The notes beneath the pieces are model-generated. The model was given only the letters and a program-made list of their open reading frames with translations. It had not been told where the DNA came from and did no database searches. Positions 1,149-31,209 of a DNA stretch of 42,684 bases are shown here, one piece after another. The first letter of the stretch is position 1; each line of letters begins with the position of its first letter. Origin of the DNA: a virus (taxonomy: Duplodnaviria; Heunggongvirae; Uroviricota; Caudoviricetes); the IMG/VR virus record IMGVR_UViG_2529292907_000016; one strand, 5' to 3'. The position numbers and the translations under genes are program-made.

Positions 1149-1442
1149 ATGGACAATCATGTAACGACGAGAAATCGAAAAATGATTGAAAATGCGGAAA
1201 TCTATAATGATTATTTTTCCGATTATTCAGATGCCTGCAAATACAGTTCGAGTGCGGGAGAGTTCATATGCTTCAACTTTTTTATTAAATCTTATGTTTT
1301 TCCTCCACAGCAAGAAGATGGAGGTGTGCCACCTCCTGAAATCACTTTGCACCGTATAGCCTCCGTCTCAATGATGGAGCAACAGGCTAATGAGCTGTAT
1401 AGCATTCTGGGAACGATTCTACAAAAGCGTGAATCGGACTAA
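1149..1442 (+). CDS. Hypothetical protein (97 aa), AT-rich, divergent from com/mom
   Basis: ORF with RBS-like AAGAGG 7 nt upstream of ATG; low-GC relative to flanks. Confidence 0.4.
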   Translation: MDNHVTTRNRKMIENAEIYNDYFSDYSDACKYSSSAGEFICFNFFIKSYVFPPQQEDGGVPPPEITLHRIASVSMMEQQANELYSILGTILQKRESD

Positions 1443-1609
1443 TGATACCGGTTCATTTGCCTGCCCGGATGGGGAAGCAGGATTGACTGCTCCATAAGCA
1501 GCTATATTTCTGAATACGAAATACTATCCAGCGATTACATATGGCTGGATAGCGGCAAAGATGTTTTCATTAGTGTCAAACCGGCAGAGGACACCACCGG
1601 TTTGTATTG

Positions 1610-2226: not shown

Positions 2227-4281
2227 TTACGCGTTATTCACTTCCACCACGATACTGTCAATCAGTACCGGGTAAGTCGCATTTTTAGTGATATCGGTCA
2301 CGCGCAACTTGTCTGCCGTAAACGTGCCGACCGGAGACTGCGACAGCATGAATGGTGTCCCGTCCTTACCATCAATGACCGGCGTCACCTCAATACTGTT
2401 GTTACCGGCAAAACGGAAGCCCAGCGTATGCCATTCGTTATTAAATGCGCCGAATGACCCCAGCTTCGTGTTCTGCGCCGTGTTTCCTTTGTGATACATC
2501 ACGTTAAGGTCTGTGGCATCGCTCTGTACGTAGAACGATGCCAGCAGGTTATGACCGGCATTTCCTTCCAGAGTAACCCCTTGCGGCAGGGCAGAAACCG
2601 GCCAGTACAGCGCCAGTGCGTACTGATTAGCCGTAAGCGCGCCATCGAGTTTAAAACGACAACTGACAAGACCACCTTTACCCAGCAGGTCCGCACCATT
2701 ACCAGCATCATGCTCAAGGTACCAGGGGGCTCTTCCTGTTTCCTTGGTCAGTTTCATTGCCTTACCCCCGCTGGCTCCGGCATCATCCACGATTTGAGCC
2801 TTGCCACCTCCGGCAGCCCAACCCTGTGGTGTCAACCGTCCTTCAGACTCAGATGCCCGGTAAGCAAATAGCGTACTCATCGTCGTGGTGTCTGCGGGTG
2901 GCGTGGACGGTTTTGATGGTGTATCAGGTGACGGCTTCTCATCCGGTGGTGTCACGGTCTGCCCGCGCATCAGTTCAGCCGTGCGCCCTGCATGGAGCAT
3001 AATAGCTGAGGCCAGACGGTCTGAAATGACGCCCCTGCGTGCCCATGAGCTGAAATGGCTGTCACGCTGTGTCGAAACAAAACTGCCCTGGGTTCGGGAT
3101 GCTGCACCGTAATACCCGACAGCCACAATATCCGGGTCTTCCGCCGGAGCATTCGTTGGCGTGCTCTGTCCATTCTCATCCGTCAGGAACGGTACAAAGA
3201 AAATTTTCTGTGCTTCCTTGCCTTTGTAGCCACCGTATACTGCCTCATATTTATCGGTGCCAGCGTTTTTCCAGTAATACGTGGTATCTCCGCAAATCCA
3301 CGGCACCGTGGTGGCATTTCCACTCACGCACTGCGCAGCAAGCGGAGCCAGGTCAGTTCTGAACTGCTGAACCATGGCCGTGAATAAACTATTATGCTGC
3401 TGGCTTCCTGAGGCAAGGTCTGCCTCTCCCTGCATCCAGACCACAGCCAGAAGTTTGTTTTTCGGGTTTTTCGCCAGCGCGACTTTGGTGCGGCTTACCA
3501 GGTCCTGATACAGAGGTTTACCGGCCCCCCAGCGTGAAGAATCAGCGGAAGCACCGCTGGCCTCACTGAATGAGCCGTCGGCTCCAGTGGTGAATGCTGA
3601 CCCGCCACGACAACAGGGCACCAGAAGTATCCCGGCATTCTGTGGGATATAGGGAAGCAGTTTTTTGGCAATATGCAACCCCTGACCGACAGTCCCGTAC
3701 TGGCCTTTTGCCAGATCAGCTTTCGGGTGGTTTATCCCGCTCATATCCTGAACATCATGCAGGCAGTGGTCTGCCGGAATGATGTCGTTGTATGTACACG
3801 ACGTACCGTTGGGCGTTACCGTACTGCGGCGTGCCAGTTGCTTAATGCGTGGGTCCGGGCGGTCAAACGAATCCGGTAACGGCAGCCCCTCGCCGTAGGC
3901 CATGCCATTTGACTGACCCGCGAGAATGACAACAAAGTAATATTCCGGCTCTGAACTGCTGCCATTCGTGCTACCGGAAGGCCCGGCGTTATCCGGTGCA
4001 TTCCAGTCGGAGGGCGTGAGCGTTCCGGCCACGTCAGATGTGATTGGAATGATGCCAGTCACGCCTGAACTGGTGATTTCTGCACTGGGATTACCGGATA
4101 CCGGCATTACCCATAATGGCTCTTTCGTGCTGAAGCGGATCACGCAGTCTGCGAAGGTGATCCCCCCTTTATTACCCGAAGGGCGGAAAGGGCTTTCAAT
4201 AAATGCCACCGTGCCACCGGCAACCTTGACTGAAAACTCTCCGGGCATGGCGGAGAGCATTTTCCACTTGGAGTCTGACAT
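2227..4281 (-). CDS. SASA-domain (sialate O-acetylesterase, NanS/NanS-p-like) esterase with Pro/Thr-rich linker and C-terminal beta-rich domain
   Basis: Motifs ILAGQSNGMAYGEG and WMQGEAD typical of SASA family; no signal peptide; linker TPPDEKPSPDTPSKPSTPP. Confidence 0.6.
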   Translation of the reverse strand: MSDSKWKMLSAMPGEFSVKVAGGTVAFIESPFRPSGNKGGITFADCVIRFSTKEPLWVMPVSGNPSAEITSSGVTGIIPITSDVAGTLTPSDWNAPDNAGPSGSTNGSSSEPEYYFVVILAGQSNGMAYGEGLPLPDSFDRPDPRIKQLARRSTVTPNGTSCTYNDIIPADHCLHDVQDMSGINHPKADLAKGQYGTVGQGLHIAKKLLPYIPQNAGILLVPCCRGGSAFTTGADGSFSEASGASADSSRWGAGKPLYQDLVSRTKVALAKNPKNKLLAVVWMQGEADLASGSQQHNSLFTAMVQQFRTDLAPLAAQCVSGNATTVPWICGDTTYYWKNAGTDKYEAVYGGYKGKEAQKIFFVPFLTDENGQSTPTNAPAEDPDIVAVGYYGAASRTQGSFVSTQRDSHFSSWARRGVISDRLASAIMLHAGRTAELMRGQTVTPPDEKPSPDTPSKPSTPPADTTTMSTLFAYRASESEGRLTPQGWAAGGGKAQIVDDAGASGGKAMKLTKETGRAPWYLEHDAGNGADLLGKGGLVSCRFKLDGALTANQYALALYWPVSALPQGVTLEGNAGHNLLASFYVQSDATDLNVMYHKGNTAQNTKLGSFGAFNNEWHTLGFRFAGNNSIEVTPVIDGKDGTPFMLSQSPVGTFTADKLRVTDITKNATYPVLIDSIVVEVNNA

Positions 4282-4355
4282 CGTCTTTTCTGCCTGTTTC
4301 TGAATTAAACAGAGTCAGAATAGCGACCGCTGAAAAATATGTGTTTTGCGGAAAT

Positions 4356-23698: not shown

Positions 23699-23819
23699 AT
23701 TGCCTCCGCATAAAGGATGAATATAAAATAAACAGGCGGTCAGTGTACGCTTAACTGGTAAAGTCGGTGCCTGCCTCCGGGTGGATCATGTATGCGGGTT
23801 CGACCCCCGCCACTGACCG

Positions 23820-25151
23820 TTAATCAATTTGTCCTTCCAGCACCTCAAGCATTCCGCCCCGGATATCCGATTTCAGCTTATCCATATTGATAACCCGGTA
23901 AGCATTCACAATCACATCCAGTTTGTCGGGCTGACGTTTCAGACTGTACGGTGCATTAACGGCAATCTGCACACTGCCATCCTTATTTTCCACGATATAC
24001 ATCAGATTTTTGTGCCGTTTGTCCCACAGCACCGCTTTTGGCTTTGCCAGCATTGCCGGTAAGCGCCCGAAGTCCTCTGGCATCAGGGCGATGCCGTCAT
24101 TCTGATGTTTCACACTGTCTGCATGGAGCACATTTTTACCGCTCATCGCCAGCAGGCGGGCCGGTGGCGTTCCCGTCCGGCTTTCCACTGCCTGCGCAAT
24201 GCTTTCAGTCATAAAGCCCAGCGTGCGGATATCGTTACCACCTCGCCGGGTCTGCATGATGTTTTTTGCCCAGATGCGGAACGCCAGCTGCCGCTCCGGG
24301 CTGTTGTTCATCTCCTGAACCACCATTTCCCGTAACGCCGGGCTTTTCACCTCGATCAGTTTGCGGATCAGCGCCTGGTCTGTGCCGAACGCTGCCGAGC
24401 CGGGGTTATATGACCAGCCCACATCCGGTGTCATGGTTCTGGTGCCATCTGAATATGTGGTCACCGGCATTTCTCTGACTTCTCCGGTCTGTTTATCCAC
24501 GCCAGCCTCAACATTGCGGGTGGAGAGATGATCCTCACCGGATGAAACGGATAACCCCATTGCATCCAGACGAGCCTGAGACAATGGCCGCACACGGCAG
24601 CGGCAGTTCCAGCCATTAGGTGGGTAGTGTGTTTTCCAGAACGGATCGTCATAGCGGAATACCAGACCGTTAAGGGCGGAATGCGACGGGCGGGTACGGC
24701 TGTCCATGACCGCCACATACTGCCAGAACGGATGCGTGTCCGTGTTGTTCATCATCTGCGTGTAACGCCCGGCATTGTAAGCCACACGGGTGTTCACGTT
24801 GTAAATCAGCGCCAGACGACGGGGACTGCCCAGTTGCACTTCTTCCGCGTTACCGTCGCTGTCCACCACAATCTGCTTTCCCCACCATCCCAGCTTTTGC
24901 AGGCGTGGCGTCAGCGTGCGGATAAATGCTTTCTGTGAAATTCCCTCATCAATGGCCCGCTGCACTTCGGCCTGTAACGTGGTCACCACATCCAGGCGTG
25001 CCGCTTTTGCTGCCGTGAATGAGCGGGCATGAACATCCGCGGCTGTTTCGAACCAGTTCCAGCTGATATGCGCCCCTTTGACACGGAAGTATGCTACCGC
25101 CTCTTTTGAGGGAAGCGTGGCGGCATAACCTAAATCAATCCCCTGTGTCAT
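23820..25151 (-). CDS. Head morphogenesis protein (Mu F-like)
   Basis: 443-aa ORF directly after portal gene. Confidence 0.7.
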   Translation of the reverse strand: MTQGIDLGYAATLPSKEAVAYFRVKGAHISWNWFETAADVHARSFTAAKAARLDVVTTLQAEVQRAIDEGISQKAFIRTLTPRLQKLGWWGKQIVVDSDGNAEEVQLGSPRRLALIYNVNTRVAYNAGRYTQMMNNTDTHPFWQYVAVMDSRTRPSHSALNGLVFRYDDPFWKTHYPPNGWNCRCRVRPLSQARLDAMGLSVSSGEDHLSTRNVEAGVDKQTGEVREMPVTTYSDGTRTMTPDVGWSYNPGSAAFGTDQALIRKLIEVKSPALREMVVQEMNNSPERQLAFRIWAKNIMQTRRGGNDIRTLGFMTESIAQAVESRTGTPPARLLAMSGKNVLHADSVKHQNDGIALMPEDFGRLPAMLAKPKAVLWDKRHKNLMYIVENKDGSVQIAVNAPYSLKRQPDKLDVIVNAYRVINMDKLKSDIRGGMLEVLEGQID

Positions 25152-26724
25152 CCAGCATCCCCTTCATTTCCGCAGCAAACATGGCATCACTGAGCAGCGT
25201 CATCAGGCGGGAATCATCCATTTCACGATAAAGGGCAGGCAGGTCTGCCAGCGCATCCGCCAGCCCCCGCGTTCTGATGGCATCAATGACCGGCTCCAGT
25301 ACCGGGTCGATGGCCTCCTGTAAGCGGCGGGCAGGCACCGCGTCCCCCATATCATCCAGTTCATCACGCGGCGTGCTTTTCGCTTCCGGCAGTCTGGCTG
25401 ACAGCGCCGTCTGCTCTGTTTTTTCCTGTTTTTCCGGTGGTGTTTCCCTGTCGGTCTGAGCCGGTTCATTGCCACTCTGACGGACACGGAATATGGCTTC
25501 ACCGGGCGTGGGCTGCGGAATACCGGTCTGCTCCCGTATCCAGGGATCAGAAATATCCATCCCCGTACTGAGCTGCATCACCGCACTGGTGATTTTGGTG
25601 ATATCACCTGGTTCTTTGGTCTGGAAGCAGATACGTGGCAGACGGCGGATATCAATAGTGTGCGTGGTGTTCAGGGCGTACAGCGGATACACCAGATCGC
25701 GGTTCAGGGTTGCAGCCAGCTGCCGTAAATCAGAATCCCTGATTTCCCGGCGCACCTCGTTATGCACCTCACCCAGCGAGCGCGCGCCTTTGTCTCCGGC
25801 TTCCGTGGTCAGCGTGCCGCCGAGTATTGCTTTGGAGATGGAACGCTCCCCCCACGAAATCATGGTTTCAAATGGATCGGCCTGACCGTTTGCTGCCGCC
25901 TGAAATTCCAGCGACATCCCGGCCGGGATGATCCCGCCTGTACGTCGCCCGATATCCATCACCGCCCGCATCAGGGCGCTTTTCTGCTCCGGTGTTGCCC
26001 CGGACGGGTATTTCCCGACCTTCATCGGCAGTCCGTACACCTCCAGAAATTCGGCCAGATCGCGCACGGAATAGTTTTTGAAAATGAACGGCCAGATAAG
26101 CGTCCTGACAAGCCCCGTTGCGCCACCGTAACCGGTCCGTGAACGTGACTGATGCACTATCCAGCCAAAAGGCTGAAACGCCACCCCGGCATGGCTGCCG
26201 TCACGCAGCCGCAGTTCGCTCAAATCATCCGGGTTAAGGCAGAAATGCCCGCTGTCACGCCAGCGGATGGCGCGGATGATGTGCATTTTACCGAGCATCC
26301 CGTGCTCAATTTCCATGCAGGAATAGCCCTTCAGGATGGCATCCGTGGCGTCAAACAGCATGGCATCAAACCAGTCTGCGGAATGCAGATATTCGTCGAG
26401 CATTTCCGCGTCCTTTTTCTCATTCGCGCTGGCGTTCGGTGGCGGCTCAATACTCCATGGCACCCCCTGAATGGCAAGACGTCGCTTGCCCAGCTCCGCA
26501 AAAAGGTGGGTGTCCTTTTCTTCAATATCAGCGGCCAGATCGGACTGGGCAATCAGATCGCCACGTTCAGCCCCGCGAAGGCACTGCGCCGCCCGGTTCG
26601 GGGTGATACCCGAAGCCGGATGTTCAATATAACGGCTGGCAATCTGCGGAATATCCAGCGCGGCACTCTGCATCTCCGGGTCAAAGGAGAAAGGTTTTCC
26701 GTCAGTATCAATGATGCGTCCCAC
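25135..26724 (-). CDS. Portal protein (Mu gp29/H-like)
   Basis: 529-aa ORF following large terminase. Confidence 0.75.
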   Translation of the reverse strand: MGRIIDTDGKPFSFDPEMQSAALDIPQIASRYIEHPASGITPNRAAQCLRGAERGDLIAQSDLAADIEEKDTHLFAELGKRRLAIQGVPWSIEPPPNASANEKKDAEMLDEYLHSADWFDAMLFDATDAILKGYSCMEIEHGMLGKMHIIRAIRWRDSGHFCLNPDDLSELRLRDGSHAGVAFQPFGWIVHQSRSRTGYGGATGLVRTLIWPFIFKNYSVRDLAEFLEVYGLPMKVGKYPSGATPEQKSALMRAVMDIGRRTGGIIPAGMSLEFQAAANGQADPFETMISWGERSISKAILGGTLTTEAGDKGARSLGEVHNEVRREIRDSDLRQLAATLNRDLVYPLYALNTTHTIDIRRLPRICFQTKEPGDITKITSAVMQLSTGMDISDPWIREQTGIPQPTPGEAIFRVRQSGNEPAQTDRETPPEKQEKTEQTALSARLPEAKSTPRDELDDMGDAVPARRLQEAIDPVLEPVIDAIRTRGLADALADLPALYREMDDSRLMTLLSDAMFAAEMKGMLDDTGD

Positions 26725-28391
26725 TACCAGCCCCCCCGATCAAATTCATGATATGCCTCATCGTCATCACGATAACCGCCCTCCATTGCCCGCGACCGCT
26801 CCGGTAGCGCCTGACAGGCTGATTCATCCAGGATGAAGCCCTCCATGTATGACGCCCGGTTTGCCATACAGAGCGCCACGGCAAAATCACCATGGCGGCG
26901 GGCGTTCGCAGCCGTTGCGTTCTGGTCCTTCGTGCGCCCCTTGTCGATTTGCGGGATACCATTCACTACCTTCACATGGCGCAAATCATCAAGCGTGGTC
27001 TGATGGCGGGCGACGAGGATATTCTGATCTTCAAACTCGGCTTTCAGTTTTGGCATCCACTCGCCGTACCACTTCGGCGACAACATCACGCAGTCGATGA
27101 TATCCGGGCCAAAGGCCAGCAGTGCGGCCTCTGCCAGATAGCCGCCGTTACCGGTGGCGTCGAACGCCGCACCGACCAGCGCCGGAACGCGGGTCAGGAT
27201 GTACATCATCACCTGTTCCTGCTGGGCATACGGCAGGTTGCGCAGCTCCACGCGAAACACCTCGCGCTTTGCCAGGGATTCGGTGATTTCCAGCAGCACA
27301 AAGCAGGACAGGTCACCGGTGCGGGCAAAGTCTTCCCCGAAGCTGAAGCGGGAACGGGGATTTAATTTCTCTAAAAGCGGTTTTAAATGTTCTTCACACC
27401 AGGTTAAAACTTCCGATTCACGCAGCCATGCGGCACGGCTGATGAAGTTGTCCGGGGCTTCAAACGTCAGAATCGGGATGTCGCGGATCATCGCCATTTC
27501 AATAAGCGCGTGGGGGATATAGGCACCGCCGGATTTTTTCGGGATACAGCCGTATTCCTCGTCGGCATCCTCACGGGTCGGGGCGTTTTTGTAGAGATCA
27601 TCACGCCATTTCTGCTCGCTTTCCGGTGACCATTCCTGATCGGTGACGTAACAGATACGACGGTACAGCCCGTCCGCAATGGCATCATCCAGGGTTATGC
27701 GGTGGACGCTGTAATCCTTGCGCCCCTCGCGGGCTTCCTGAATGTACTGATTAAACAGATTATCGACGCCGTTATGCGTGGAGATAATACGCACGCGCGC
27801 GCCCCACATAGTGAGCGCCATTGCCGCCTTGAGAAGCTCATCCAGTGACTCGTGGAACGCGGCTTCATCAATCACCACATCCCCCTGAAGGCCGCGCAGG
27901 TTTGACGGACGGGAAGACAATGCCTGAATTTTGAATCCACTGTTCGGAAAGCGGATCATGTAGGTCAAAATTTCTTCTTTTTTATCCCGATCCCAGAATG
28001 TCTGCTCATACACATCAGCATCTGCCAGCTGGTTAAAGGCACGGGAGAACAGCGCGCAGGCAGAAATATATTCCAGCGCCATCTCCTGCTTTGATCCCAC
28101 ATAAAACACATTGCGGCCACCACGACGCTTCGGTTTTGCAGCAGTAATGACGTTACGCCCGGCTTCCGCCCAGGTAAGACCGGTGCGGCGGGATTTCTCC
28201 GCGATGCAGACCTGACTTTCATCTGCAAACCAGCGGGCCTGATAATCCAGAAACACCGGCATATCACCGGGCAAATCAAGGCTGTCCGGCACATCCACGC
28301 CCAGCAGGGCTTTTTCACCTGACAGATCAATTTTGCGGGGAGGCGTCATTTGCATCAGTGAAGGCGACGTTTCTCTGGCTTTGTTCATCAT
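26724..28391 (-). CDS. Terminase large subunit
   Basis: 555-aa ORF upstream of portal. Confidence 0.75.
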   Translation of the reverse strand: MMNKARETSPSLMQMTPPRKIDLSGEKALLGVDVPDSLDLPGDMPVFLDYQARWFADESQVCIAEKSRRTGLTWAEAGRNVITAAKPKRRGGRNVFYVGSKQEMALEYISACALFSRAFNQLADADVYEQTFWDRDKKEEILTYMIRFPNSGFKIQALSSRPSNLRGLQGDVVIDEAAFHESLDELLKAAMALTMWGARVRIISTHNGVDNLFNQYIQEAREGRKDYSVHRITLDDAIADGLYRRICYVTDQEWSPESEQKWRDDLYKNAPTREDADEEYGCIPKKSGGAYIPHALIEMAMIRDIPILTFEAPDNFISRAAWLRESEVLTWCEEHLKPLLEKLNPRSRFSFGEDFARTGDLSCFVLLEITESLAKREVFRVELRNLPYAQQEQVMMYILTRVPALVGAAFDATGNGGYLAEAALLAFGPDIIDCVMLSPKWYGEWMPKLKAEFEDQNILVARHQTTLDDLRHVKVVNGIPQIDKGRTKDQNATAANARRHGDFAVALCMANRASYMEGFILDESACQALPERSRAMEGGYRDDDEAYHEFDRGGW

Positions 28392-28636
28392 GCTTTACCT
28401 GTCAGAATGCTTTTGATTCGGGACTCAAGCTCTTCAGTCATCACGTCCACGCCGCTCAACTCATCAGTGGCAGCCTCTGCCAGCAGCGAATGCAGTTGTT
28501 CCAGGGATATTTCCCCGGCAATGCTGAGTTCAGTCAACTCACGACATACCTTTATGGTTTCAGGAGGTAACTGTGTTGCAAGACTGAATGCTTTCTGATG
28601 GGCACTGCTCATCAGTGAGCGGTTATCTGTTGCCAT
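28388..28636 (-). CDS. Hypothetical 82-aa protein with a C-terminal tail similar to that of the small-terminase-like protein
   Basis: ...ELSGVDVMTEELESRIKSILTGKA vs ...ELRGVDGMSEQIEFRIRQMLLGKA; ~24 bp near-identical DNA stretch. Confidence 0.45.
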   Translation of the reverse strand: MATDNRSLMSSAHQKAFSLATQLPPETIKVCRELTELSIAGEISLEQLHSLLAEAATDELSGVDVMTEELESRIKSILTGKA

Positions 28637-28646
28637 GATTCACCTC

Positions 28647-29228
28647 CTACGCCTTACCCAGCAGCATCTGCCTGATACGGAATTCGATCTGCTCGCTCAT
28701 GCCATCCACGCCGCGCAACTCATCGGTGACCGCATTCGCCATCTCTTCAGCAAATGCGGCCCGGATTTCTTTTTCACGCTTAATGCTGCGCTCGGCGGCA
28801 CTTTCTGCACGCTGTGCCGACAGGAGGATGTCCTTAATAAGGCGCATATCCACATCGCTGTCGCTGTTCAGGGATTCGGTGGCGGCACGCAGACGGCGGT
28901 ACATCAGGGCACGGGACATCTCCAGAATCAGTGCCGTGGTTTCACCGGTCGGCTTATCCCCCAGTTCGGCCATCATGGCTTTTGTCTGCTCGCGTAAATC
29001 ACGCAGATTACGGGCAATCAGCTCATTACGGGAGGCTTCCCGGCTGATGGCCGCCGGTGAGAGCTGCTGCTCTTCCGGCAGACCTGCTTCACGGATCAGA
29101 CGGTTGATTTCCTCGCGGATCTGGACCTGCGTCAGACGTTTTTCACGCAGCATTTCCAGCAGCGGCTTACGGATGCTGTCGGGGAGCAAATCCACCTTGC
29201 GTACACGGCCACGCGTTGGCTTATCCAT
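28647..29228 (-). CDS. Terminase small subunit candidate (Mu gp27-like)
   Basis: 193-aa helical, charged protein immediately upstream of large terminase. Confidence 0.55.
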   Translation of the reverse strand: MDKPTRGRVRKVDLLPDSIRKPLLEMLREKRLTQVQIREEINRLIREAGLPEEQQLSPAAISREASRNELIARNLRDLREQTKAMMAELGDKPTGETTALILEMSRALMYRRLRAATESLNSDSDVDMRLIKDILLSAQRAESAAERSIKREKEIRAAFAEEMANAVTDELRGVDGMSEQIEFRIRQMLLGKA

Positions 29229-29230
29229 CG

Positions 29231-29521
29231 TTACCCCCTTGCGCGTGGTTTCTTCACACCCGGAACGGTGGCGCGGCCTTCCGCCACATCCTGACCCCGG
29301 CCGGTCAGTTCAGCGATGAAATAACCGTTAACAAGCGTGCGCTTACGCACCAGTCCCTGCTCGGCAAGCCAGGCAATGTGGGTATGAACGGTGTCGCGGG
29401 ACACGCGGTGACCGTAATCATCCAGGCAGTCCTGAAGCACGGATTCGCCCAGTTCGCCGTTGTAATCCGCCAGCGACCGCAGAATGACAAGACGCTGATC
29501 TTCAGTAATGAAATCACTCAT
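29231..29521 (-). CDS. Hypothetical protein (Mu gp26-like position)
   Basis: 96-aa ORF; synteny. Confidence 0.45.
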   Translation of the reverse strand: MSDFITEDQRLVILRSLADYNGELGESVLQDCLDDYGHRVSRDTVHTHIAWLAEQGLVRKRTLVNGYFIAELTGRGQDVAEGRATVPGVKKPRARG

Positions 29522-30415: not shown

Positions 30416-30710
30416 TCGTGGCCGCCTTGCTGATTTGTGAAATGAGTTGCAGGGTGCTTTGCTGGTTTGCCAGCACCAGACGGGCTTCGTCCCGTTCACG
30501 CACAAGCACATGATTATTGTCCTCAAGGCGCTGCGTCTTCTGGTGCATTCCCCATACCACGGCAGCCAGCACGCTCATCACCCCCAGCGCCGCCATACAG
30601 CCTCCGGCAATCAGGGCCGGTAAGGGATTGTTCACCGCAGACACAGCACACCCCGCAGCAGCACAACGGCACACAGCAGCGCAATCATGAGCGGTCGCCA
30701 GAAGCGGTTC
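30246..30710 (-). CDS. Rz-like i-spanin (start uncertain; ORF as tracked begins inside lys)
   Basis: TM segment followed by coiled coil; overlapping Rz1 frame. Confidence 0.55.
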   Translation of the reverse strand, partial: EPLLATAHDCAAVCRCAAAGCAVSAVNNPLPALIAGGCMAALGVMSVLAAVVWGMHQKTQRLEDNNHVLVRERDEARLVLANQQSTLQLISQISKAATNEKQQNMQHSEEQQSIVRRSLATVPAAAVPVPDDVADRVRRAVCEIRPCAAGADPR

Positions 30711-31209
30711 AGACTTTCGGCAAATCGTAACGACATAACCATTCATCCGCCGAACGGCGGGCCTCAAGACCGGGGAGTTTTACCCCCTTTGAATAAATCC
30801 AGCGGATATACTGCTTACAGGACGCGGGCATCTGCCCGGCATTGATAAGGCGCAGGAGCGTGGAGTTGCGAAAGTTCGTTTCACCGGCCCAGAAAATCCA
30901 GGAGGCCAGCGCCACCGTCTGACCACGGGTAAGCGGCACCTGAACATGACGATCGATAGCCGCAAAGGCCCATTTCATGTCCTTTTCCAGCAGCTCCAGA
31001 CACTCTTCATCAGTTTTTGTCATCCCCGGTTTCACATCCGGGCCGGTATGGCCGTAACAGATGGTGGGGGTGCCGGTGGGATCAATGTACGTGGTGTTTT
31101 CTTTCCCTTCCCAGTAGCCGGTGTAGTGCGTGGCAATGGTGAACGTCCCGGCTCCGGCCAGAACAAGGGCAATCAGCTTTTTACGCAGGGGTGCGGGGAG
31201 TTTTGGCAT
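30709..31209 (-). CDS. lys: SAR endolysin (T4-lysozyme-like)
   Basis: N-terminal hydrophobic SAR-like segment then EG...D...T lysozyme motif region. Confidence 0.75.
   Translation of the reverse strand: MPKLPAPLRKKLIALVLAGAGTFTIATHYTGYWEGKENTTYIDPTGTPTICYGHTGPDVKPGMTKTDEECLELLEKDMKWAFAAIDRHVQVPLTRGQTVALASWIFWAGETNFRNSTLLRLINAGQMPASCKQYIRWIYSKGVKLPGLEARRSADEWLCRYDLPKV

Follow-up and report, generated by a model that had tools for sequence, protein, structure and literature searches.

Why does a Mu-like prophage carry a small gene between the two subunit genes of its terminase, how did that gene arise and what, if anything, does it do? The locus lies in a 42,684-nucleotide (nt) stretch of viral DNA, IMG/VR record IMGVR_UViG_2529292907_000016 (hereafter the window, meaning that whole stretch), which is a Mu-like prophage of Escherichia coli that interrupts the host autotransporter gene ycgV. 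An earlier reading of the letters and translations alone (the sequence-only reading) had placed a small open reading frame (ORF) between the terminase subunit genes, and the gene order on the minus strand agrees: gp27 (28647-29228), the 193-residue Mu-type small terminase (TerS), is followed by ORF82 (28388-28636; WP_000179787.1, phrog_30922), which encodes a putatively chimeric protein of 82 residues, and then by the large terminase TerL (26724-28391; 554/555 residues). The two flanking assignments come from profile matches: gp27 covers the whole of PF11985 Phage_Mu_Gp27 (E=3e-33, 116 bits), matches phrog_426 ‘terminase small subunit’ (E=9e-55) and is named ‘phage protein Gp27 family protein’ in RefSeq, while TerL matches phrog_2 ‘terminase large subunit’ (E=6e-43). 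ORF82 itself is a ‘hypothetical protein’ in RefSeq and phrog_30922 carries no annotation. Herein we argue that ORF82 is very probably a fusion of a small accessory phage protein, which we call X, to a small-terminase tail, made by recombination between phage lineages; the further reading, that the fused tail is a tolerated by-product of that event, is much less certain than the origin and anatomy.

The tail is the part of ORF82 that connects it to its neighbour. Residues 52-82 (LAEAATDELSGVDVMTEELESRIKSILTGKA; 28391-28483, minus strand) align without gaps to residues 163-193 of gp27 (MANAVTDELRGVDGMSEQIEFRIRQMLLGKA; 28650-28742, minus strand), with 18 of 31 positions identical and 24 of 31 positive (E=3e-10, BLASTP as a single comparison), and the last 31 codons of the two genes share 62 of 93 nt. 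Each tail copy contains a 24-nt core, at 28446-28469 and 28705-28728 respectively (no strand assigned to either; both read directly and aligned), and the cores are identical at 22 of 24 positions. The resemblance of the C-termini and the near-identical DNA stretch of about 24 bp, both pointed out in the sequence-only reading, are therefore confirmed by formal alignment. The two copies are direct repeats spaced 259 nt; an automated repeat scan did not report the pair, despite exact seeds of 10 and 9 nt, and the repeat was verified by direct reading and alignment. Independently of these comparisons, the phrog_30922 profile, which represents the ORF82 family, matches gp27 residues 162-193 (E=6e-8), and on the alignments the similarity is genuine homology. 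An AlphaFold2 (AF2) model of ORF82 (predicted local distance difference test, pLDDT, 70) contains four helices, the tail being folded as helix, loop (SGVDVMT) and helix, and the gp27 tail is drawn as helix, loop (GVDGMS) and terminal helix in a low-confidence, single-sequence AF2 model (pLDDT 62) that we used for secondary structure only.

The C-terminal 45 residues are the best-conserved part of gp27 among the E. coli, Mu, Yersinia and Vibrio phages compared. Set beside this Mu gp27 family (PF11985/DUF3486; phrog_426), the last ~30 residues of ORF82 share the tail pattern A.AVTDEL.GVD.M.E.LE.RI..L.GKA and likewise end directly on the TerL start codon. Unlike gp27, ORF82 has no counterpart of the other ~160 residues, among them the helix-turn-helix-like region at the N-terminus and the long helices in the middle, and it is altered at four positions of the tail: every allele has S, V, T and T in place of the R (in ELRG), G (in DG), S (in SE) and L (in LLGKA) that are invariant in all gp27 tails compared. 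A hmmscan of ORF82 against Pfam-A gave no PF11985 match at E<=0.1. With neither that match nor a recognisable DNA-binding or oligomerisation part in its sequence, ORF82 is not a small terminase.

What precedes the tail has a different relative. Residues 1-55 of ORF82 (28472-28636, minus strand) match residues 1-59 of X67, a 67-residue protein (P0012), with 54% identity (E=2e-20, BLASTP), and X67 terminates without any terminase tail. We use X for the family defined in this analysis as the small ORF directly 3' of gp27 in Mu-like phages, whose members are helical and of 56-67 residues. The match of ORF82 to phrog_30922 runs from end to end (E=6.9e-52; residues 2-82 against positions 2-82 of the 82 in the profile), and the composite make-up of this family is visible because its profile also matches both the gp27 tail and X67, the latter over residues 2-59. 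A profile search with the ORF82 family against 1.84 billion representative proteins returned only four relatives, X67 among them, and a scan of one-genome-per-species contigs with ORF82 and with X67 gave no match.

The X family, found in a minority of Mu-like phages, nevertheless recurs at one and the same place. X67 is encoded on six metagenomic contigs, and in the longest of these (L011) it occupies the slot of ORF82, after a 193-residue gp27 and the same 10-nt spacer GGAGGTGAATC. The last 31 residues of the L011 gp27 are those of the window gp27 in protein and share 88 of 93 nt with it; X67 is then followed by a 119-nt gap and by a TerL with a different N-terminal leader. True relatives of Mu have a more distant form of X in this slot. 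In the Yersinia phage vB_YpM_Tongde (MT591577) we found an unannotated 58-codon member, X58 (1387-1562, minus strand), starting 10 nt past gp27. DNA homology between Tongde and the window crosses the gp27 stop and the spacer and goes on for about 21 codons, and the direct protein match of ORF82 to X58 is limited to ORF82 residues 1-21 (E=7e-5). Four Muvirus-like contigs of IMG/VR (L026-L029) carry, at 3104-3274, an unannotated 56-codon member, X56, which again starts 10 nt past the gp27 stop and to which X67 aligns ungapped over 55 of 56 residues (31% identity, E=1e-8). The slot is thus constant, on the same strand, 10 nt after the gp27 stop and upstream of TerL, in the window, L011, Tongde and L026-L029, and in the last three of these settings X stands without a tail. 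Both X67 and X56 end at a motif KQL..L, whose equivalent in ORF82, EQLHSLL, directly precedes the tail. On these alignments ORF82 is made up of a whole X and a small-terminase tail in one reading frame, and the two meet at residues 52-55 (LAEA).

Several candidate relationships of X were set aside. Descent of X from a diverged piece of gp27 was ruled out (hhalign probability 0.1%), and the weak PHROG matches, to phrog_220 for X56 and X58 (E~5e-4 to 1e-3) and to a transposase family for X67 (E=0.005), were judged uninformative. The gaps that follow X in L026 and L011 are not decayed copies of the tail, as their local alignments were no better than those of shuffled sequences, which implies that X, when first inserted, did not bring the tail with it. 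What fills the L026 gap is what deletion has left of the second inserted ORF (66 residues, phrog_21398) that follows X58 in Tongde; L026 keeps only this internally deleted form. In L011 the gap (4205-4323) appears, by eye only, to hold on its reverse strand an antisense ORF of ~40 codons with a strong ribosome-binding site (GAGAGGAGAG ATG ATG CTG..), running back into the 3' end of X67. Scans of Pfam, NCBIfam and PADLOC yielded no family for ORF82, X67 or X56, the only PHROG match of ORF82 was phrog_30922, and a fold search of the ORF82 AF2 model against BFVD found nothing with E<0.8; the searches made thus gave no fold, structure or family match as a clue to the function of X.

If the tail did not come with X, where did it come from? 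The prophage family of the window is present in 230 of 5,426 complete E. coli genomes, and three kinds of junction between gp27 and TerL can be told apart within it and its relatives. About 205 of the 230 genomes, for example O157:H7 strains, have no ORF82 and are of type 1, in which gp27 runs directly into TerL, stop overlapping start; here the gp27 tail ends in LESRIKGILLGKA and the TerL leader is MNNAEELSPLLTNTVST. Type 2, the arrangement of the window, has a gp27 tail ending in IEFRIRQMLLGKA, an ORF82 tail ending in LESRIKSILTGKA and the TerL leader MNKA.E.SPSL.QMTPP. Type 3, represented by L011, combines the gp27 tail IEFRIRQMLLGKA with X67, a gap and the TerL leader MSKRTGEEKIKPDTGLIKLSPP, and was absent from the complete E. 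coli genomes and GenBank phages searched. The exchanged block reaches from gp27 codon ~180 to TerL codon ~18, and the DNA on either side is 93-97% identical between prophage types. ORF82 is poorly conserved but not absent from all relatives, being present in 25 genomes and missing from ~89% of the family. Phage Mu also lacks ORF82, and X was not found in Mu or in the Vibrio phage compared. That ~205 of the 230 related E. coli prophages, and Mu as well, do without ORF82 means that it is dispensable.

The second tail does not look like a copy of the first. The ORF82 tail agrees with the type 1 gp27 tail at 22 of 31 residues and 71-72 of 93 nt, as against 18 of 31 residues and 62 of 93 nt for the adjacent gp27, and this greater nearness to the gp27 of other lineages suggests that the tail arrived by recombination between lineages and not by local duplication. 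The sequence-only reading had favoured a partial gene duplication, which in its most explicit form would be a tandem duplication, in situ, of the 3' end of the resident gp27, the upstream part of ORF82 having arisen de novo or diverged beyond recognition. Two direct gp27-tail-like copies 259 nt apart speak for such an event. However, residues 1-55 belong to a recognisable independent family unrelated to gp27, the second tail is nearer to the tails of other lineages than to the one beside it, and the two tails are only 67% identical in DNA, compared with 93-97% for the flanking genes between prophage types. We consider in-situ duplication highly improbable; of the proposed duplication, the homology of the tail stands, while the local event does not.

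Recombination between lineages accounts for the arrangement in another way. The left half of type 2 resembles type 3 and its right half resembles a type 1-like phage, which is the pattern expected of recombination between an X-bearing and an X-less parent. In the X-bearing parent, gp27 would have been followed after 10 nt by X, and X, across a gap, by TerL; the X-less parent would have had a gp27 stop overlapping the TerL start. The right-hand crossover would have fallen at a short patch of similarity between the 3' end of X (..LVAHA / ..LLAEA) and the gp27 tail (..MANAV), giving a product in which an intact gp27 with its own tail is followed by X, and X in turn leads into another gp27 tail, of foreign origin, which is still attached to its TerL leader through the original overlapping stop and start. 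The donor would have carried a gp27 ending in ELSGVDVMTEELESRIKSILTGKA, or a close relative of it, abutting a TerL that starts MNKAKE.SPSL.QMTPP. Among other tails, the best DNA match to the ORF82 tail reaches only 76% identity, so the event would be old or the donor unsampled.

The same junctions could be read in the opposite direction, with the ORF82 arrangement ancestral and the ORF82-less form produced by recombination between the direct tail repeats, which would delete exactly 259 bp. The length difference between types 1 and 2 is indeed exactly 259 bp, equal to the repeat spacing, and the type 1 gp27 tail resembles the type 2 gp27 over its first 18 codons (45/54 nt) and is slightly nearer to the ORF82 tail over its last 13 (30/39 vs 26/39 nt; LESRIKGILLGKA vs LESRIKSILTGKA). 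The type 1 tail, however, simply matches the family consensus, and that of the Vibrio phage, LEDRIRGILLGKA, is equally close; the TerL leaders of types 1 and 2 differ by ~24% in DNA, so type 1 did not arise by recent deletion from any of the type 2 junctions sampled; and Mu and the Vibrio phage are likewise without X. We regard an origin of type 1 by deletion as unlikely, and retain for type 2 the recombination of an X-bearing with an X-less lineage.

Prophages bearing ORF82 have spread. They are found at six different targets, namely ycgV, the Flag-2 locus, hsdR, torZ, a fimbrial usher gene and the tail gene of a lambdoid prophage. The X part of ORF82 has three matching places in E. coli JE86-ST05 (NZ_AP022815.1), and the ORF82 region two in JE86-ST02 (NZ_AP022811.1), which suggests recent replicative transposition or repeated lysogeny by an ORF82-bearing Mu-like phage. 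At least six insertion sites and up to three copies per genome imply that phages with ORF82 have infected or transposed repeatedly, and for this reason ORF82 cannot be a strong inhibitor of packaging. Phages that carry it are viable, and ORF82 is tolerated.

Is ORF82 then a gene at all, or an untranslated or meaningless open frame left behind by recombination? The 13 nt that lead up to ORF82 (28637-28649, minus strand; TAGGAGGTGAATCATG on the coding strand) consist of the gp27 stop codon TAG and the 10-nt spacer, which holds a Shine-Dalgarno sequence of consensus strength, AGGAGGTG, at the optimal spacing of 5 nt before the start codon. At its other end, the ORF82 stop TGA overlaps the TerL start codon(s) ATGATG (junction GGTAAAGCATGATGAAC), in the same way as the gp27 stop does in type 1 prophages. 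A scan of 28200-29400 found no sigma-70-like promoter, although it was consensus-only and cannot detect Mor/C-dependent late promoters, and there was no terminator-like site on the minus strand between gp27 and the TerL start, the only one (28270-28256) lying within TerL. ORF82 was intact in all 13 genomic and IMG/VR copies examined, which comprise eight DNA alleles, diverged by as much as 12%; GTG is the start codon of the commonest. Frameshifted or indel variants (P0003, P0004, P0010 and P0011) occur in metagenome assemblies. Within its first ~20 codons (28577-28636 in the window, compared with 2778-2837 in L002) the gene exists in two very different forms, MATDNRSLMSSAHQKAFSLA and MEKNIRALIISARHEAFNLA, with a synonymous divergence (dS) of 0.65-1.0, while the rest of it differs by a few percent between these forms, which places a second, tiny mosaic boundary within a gene of 82 codons.

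Selection on ORF82 was weak in comparison with that on its neighbours. The ratio of non-synonymous to synonymous change (omega) estimated from segregating changes is ~0.5 for ORF82 (P=0.03 against neutrality), while in the same prophages it is ~0.1 for TerL and, among 11 alleles with 44 synonymous changes and one non-synonymous change, ~0.01 for gp27. The differences in constraint are clear for ORF82 vs gp27 (Fisher P=1.5e-9) and for ORF82 vs TerL (Fisher P=4e-5). The tail taken separately gives the same picture, with 5 synonymous and 6 non-synonymous changes in ORF82 against 12 and 0 in the gp27 of the same prophages. Constraint on ORF82 is thus relaxed compared with gp27 and TerL. This relaxation, together with a narrow spread (E. 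coli only, 11 database clusters and four matches among 1.8 billion representatives), with the lack of any family, fold or structure match that would give a function and with the frameshifted or indel variants of the metagenome assemblies, is what a meaningless frame would predict. Such a frame would not be expected to show a consensus-strength and optimally spaced Shine-Dalgarno sequence, 13 of 13 intact genomic copies across the eight divergent alleles, an omega significantly below 1 and, for the X part, conservation at the protein level across very divergent phages. We therefore find it very unlikely that ORF82 is without function in this sense.

A function for the tail, as distinct from the protein as a whole, depends on what the gp27 tail does. 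The first ~17 codons of TerL, ahead of the conserved motif PRKIDL, form a variable leader (28341-28391, minus strand) that is hypervariable among otherwise near-identical prophages, with three unrelated versions of 17-22 residues. Within type 2, omega is ~0.7 in the first 20 TerL codons. The leader is always swapped together with the end of the upstream gene, so that the two behave as one junction module. In lambda and P22, the C-terminus of TerS docks on the N-terminal ~20-60 residues of TerL, the partners being gpNu1 and gpA in lambda, and gp3 residues 140-162 with gp2 residues 1-58 in P22 (PMC9611059). By this precedent, a conserved gp27 tail beside a co-exchanged TerL leader is likely to be a contact pair in Mu-type terminases also, and the gp27 tail is probably a TerL-binding element. 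The likeness lies in a short peptide at the TerS C-terminus that adjoins a variable TerL leader, the two being exchanged together as expected of an interacting pair; no homology of sequence exists between the lambda or P22 terminases and the Mu-type terminase here, and the likeness is one of analogy only. Searches of the Protein Data Bank (PDB) with gp27 and TerL sequences returned nothing usable, and our literature searches on Mu gp27, DUF3486 and Mu-like small terminases found nothing on ORF82, the X family or gp27-TerL contacts.

By the same analogy ORF82 could be a terminase accessory, whose tail docks X on the N-terminal region of TerL and thereby either competes with gp27, tuning the initiation of packaging, or recruits an activity of X to the packaging motor; this refines the competitor or adaptor proposed in the sequence-only reading. 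No segment of gp27 is better conserved than the tail, whose counterpart binds TerL in lambda and P22 and which moves with the variable leader as one module; the type 2 gp27 has the tail associated with type 3, while ORF82 has the tail linked to the resident TerL leader; X always lies between TerS and TerL; and the intact copies, strong Shine-Dalgarno sequence and omega below 1 described above would all fit a working accessory. Against this, the tail is weakly constrained and altered at four positions invariant in gp27, the gene is missing from ~89% of close prophages and from Mu and so is not needed for packaging, X stands without a tail in three other contexts, and the linkage of tail to leader is expected from adjacency alone, which explains the type 2 pairing equally well. 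We treat such docking as a tentative possibility. Somewhat more doubtful still is the idea that ORF82 is a natural ‘tagged’ protein, in which X would have captured a TerL-docking peptide and thereby been delivered to the packaging motor. A tagged X could modulate initiation, for instance as a rival of gp27 for TerL or as a shield of TerL against interference by satellites or the host, and the tail and TerL leader would then constitute an exchangeable specificity module of Mu-type terminases.

The account of function that we prefer, at roughly even confidence, gives the tail a smaller part. ORF82 would be transcribed as part of the late head operon, its translation starting from the strong Shine-Dalgarno sequence, and would take the position of gp27 directly upstream of TerL. 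Translation of TerL is probably coupled to that of ORF82, because the ORF82 stop overlaps the TerL start. The tail itself would be a tolerated relic that has drifted at positions invariant in small terminases, whose binding to TerL is probably weak or nil and which does not appear to prevent packaging. The evidence leans against a strictly conserved TerL-binding role for the ORF82 tail, because of the 5/6 vs 12/0 tail changes and the four altered invariant positions.

Several observations weigh against this account, on the side of origin as well as of function. No donor lineage with a matching tail and TerL leader was found, and the recombination history is read from the mosaic pattern, not observed. 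Coupling is not obligatory in the group, given that TerL lies 7-119 nt from the upstream ORF in Mu, L011 and the X56 phages, and coupling alone thus does not explain why the frame has been kept. An omega below 1, at borderline significance, and a frame that is open in all copies point to some selection at the protein level, and both X and the tail could be its target. Finally, the four substitutions fixed in all alleles could mean that the tail has adapted to an altered partner, namely the TerL leader of type 2, and not that it has decayed.

As a genetic structure, ORF82 has close parallels. The mosaic ‘novel joints’ of tailed phages, which leave chimeric ORFs, are a well-known phenomenon (the Hendrix/Hatfull concept), and the work of Juhala et al. 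2000 on HK97 and HK022 is said to provide an example of such joints and of morons. ORF82 is likewise optional between adjacent conserved genes, has sharp boundaries at short patches of similarity and leaves a partial gene copy, and from its sequence it is a recombination-made chimeric ORF at a mosaic joint. Unlike classic morons, ORF82 has no detected promoter or terminator of its own and would be read within the late operon, and it is fused in frame to a fragment of a neighbouring essential gene. A more distant comparison is with Rpp of phage-inducible chromosomal islands (PICI) and Ppi of Staphylococcus aureus pathogenicity islands (SaPI), small satellite-encoded proteins that bind TerS and block the helper phage (PMC6739421). 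The likeness is that of a small helical protein which, in the case of ORF82, might act on terminase by protein contact. ORF82 differs in that it is encoded by the phage, in a complete Mu-like late operon, in that its expected target would be TerL, and in its compatibility with phage spread; scans with Pfam, NCBIfam, PADLOC and PHROG detected no similarity of ORF82 to Rpp or Ppi.

What the locus means depends on the tail. If the tail still binds TerL, ORF82 would, as a natural experiment, map the TerS-TerL contact of Mu-type terminases to a peptide of ~30 residues and a TerL leader of ~17, and would be an example of a phage gene gaining a docking tag by recombination. If it is only a relic, which we think more likely, ORF82 would be a clean, datable case of a mosaic joint that made a chimeric ORF within an essential operon and did not kill the phage. 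The locus also flags X as an unannotated family of small genes at the TerS/TerL junction of Mu-like phages. In either case the practical consequence is small, as ORF82 is dispensable and is found rarely and in E. coli prophages only.

The wider setting is a Mu-like late region, with the minus-strand order lysozyme (30709-31209), spanins, TraR-like zinc finger, DUF2730 protein, gp26-like winged helix protein (29231-29521), gp27, ORF82, TerL and Mu-type portal. In the related prophage L017 (NZ_CP189662), RefSeq annotates a ‘tRNA-OTHER’ at 23739-23826, between the genes for virion morphogenesis and minor head proteins, which corresponds to about 23700-23830 of the window; an ARAGORN search of the whole window found no tRNA or tmRNA. 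The 1-kb region around ORF82 is 100% identical to that of E. coli strain 102651, while the remainder of the window is only ~94% identical to the prophage of that strain, which occupies another insertion site. The right flank of the window prophage (41850-42684) is ycgV, a site unlike those of all five other ORF82-bearing prophages examined. The MuA-like transposase gene of the window (38468-40576, minus strand) contains an in-frame stop at 39131-39133 (..AMRDLPS*SELIDAIRDG..), which divides it into ORFs of 481 and 197 codons, while its homologue in strain 102651 is unbroken at 696 codons; given this stop, the window prophage is probably transposition-defective.

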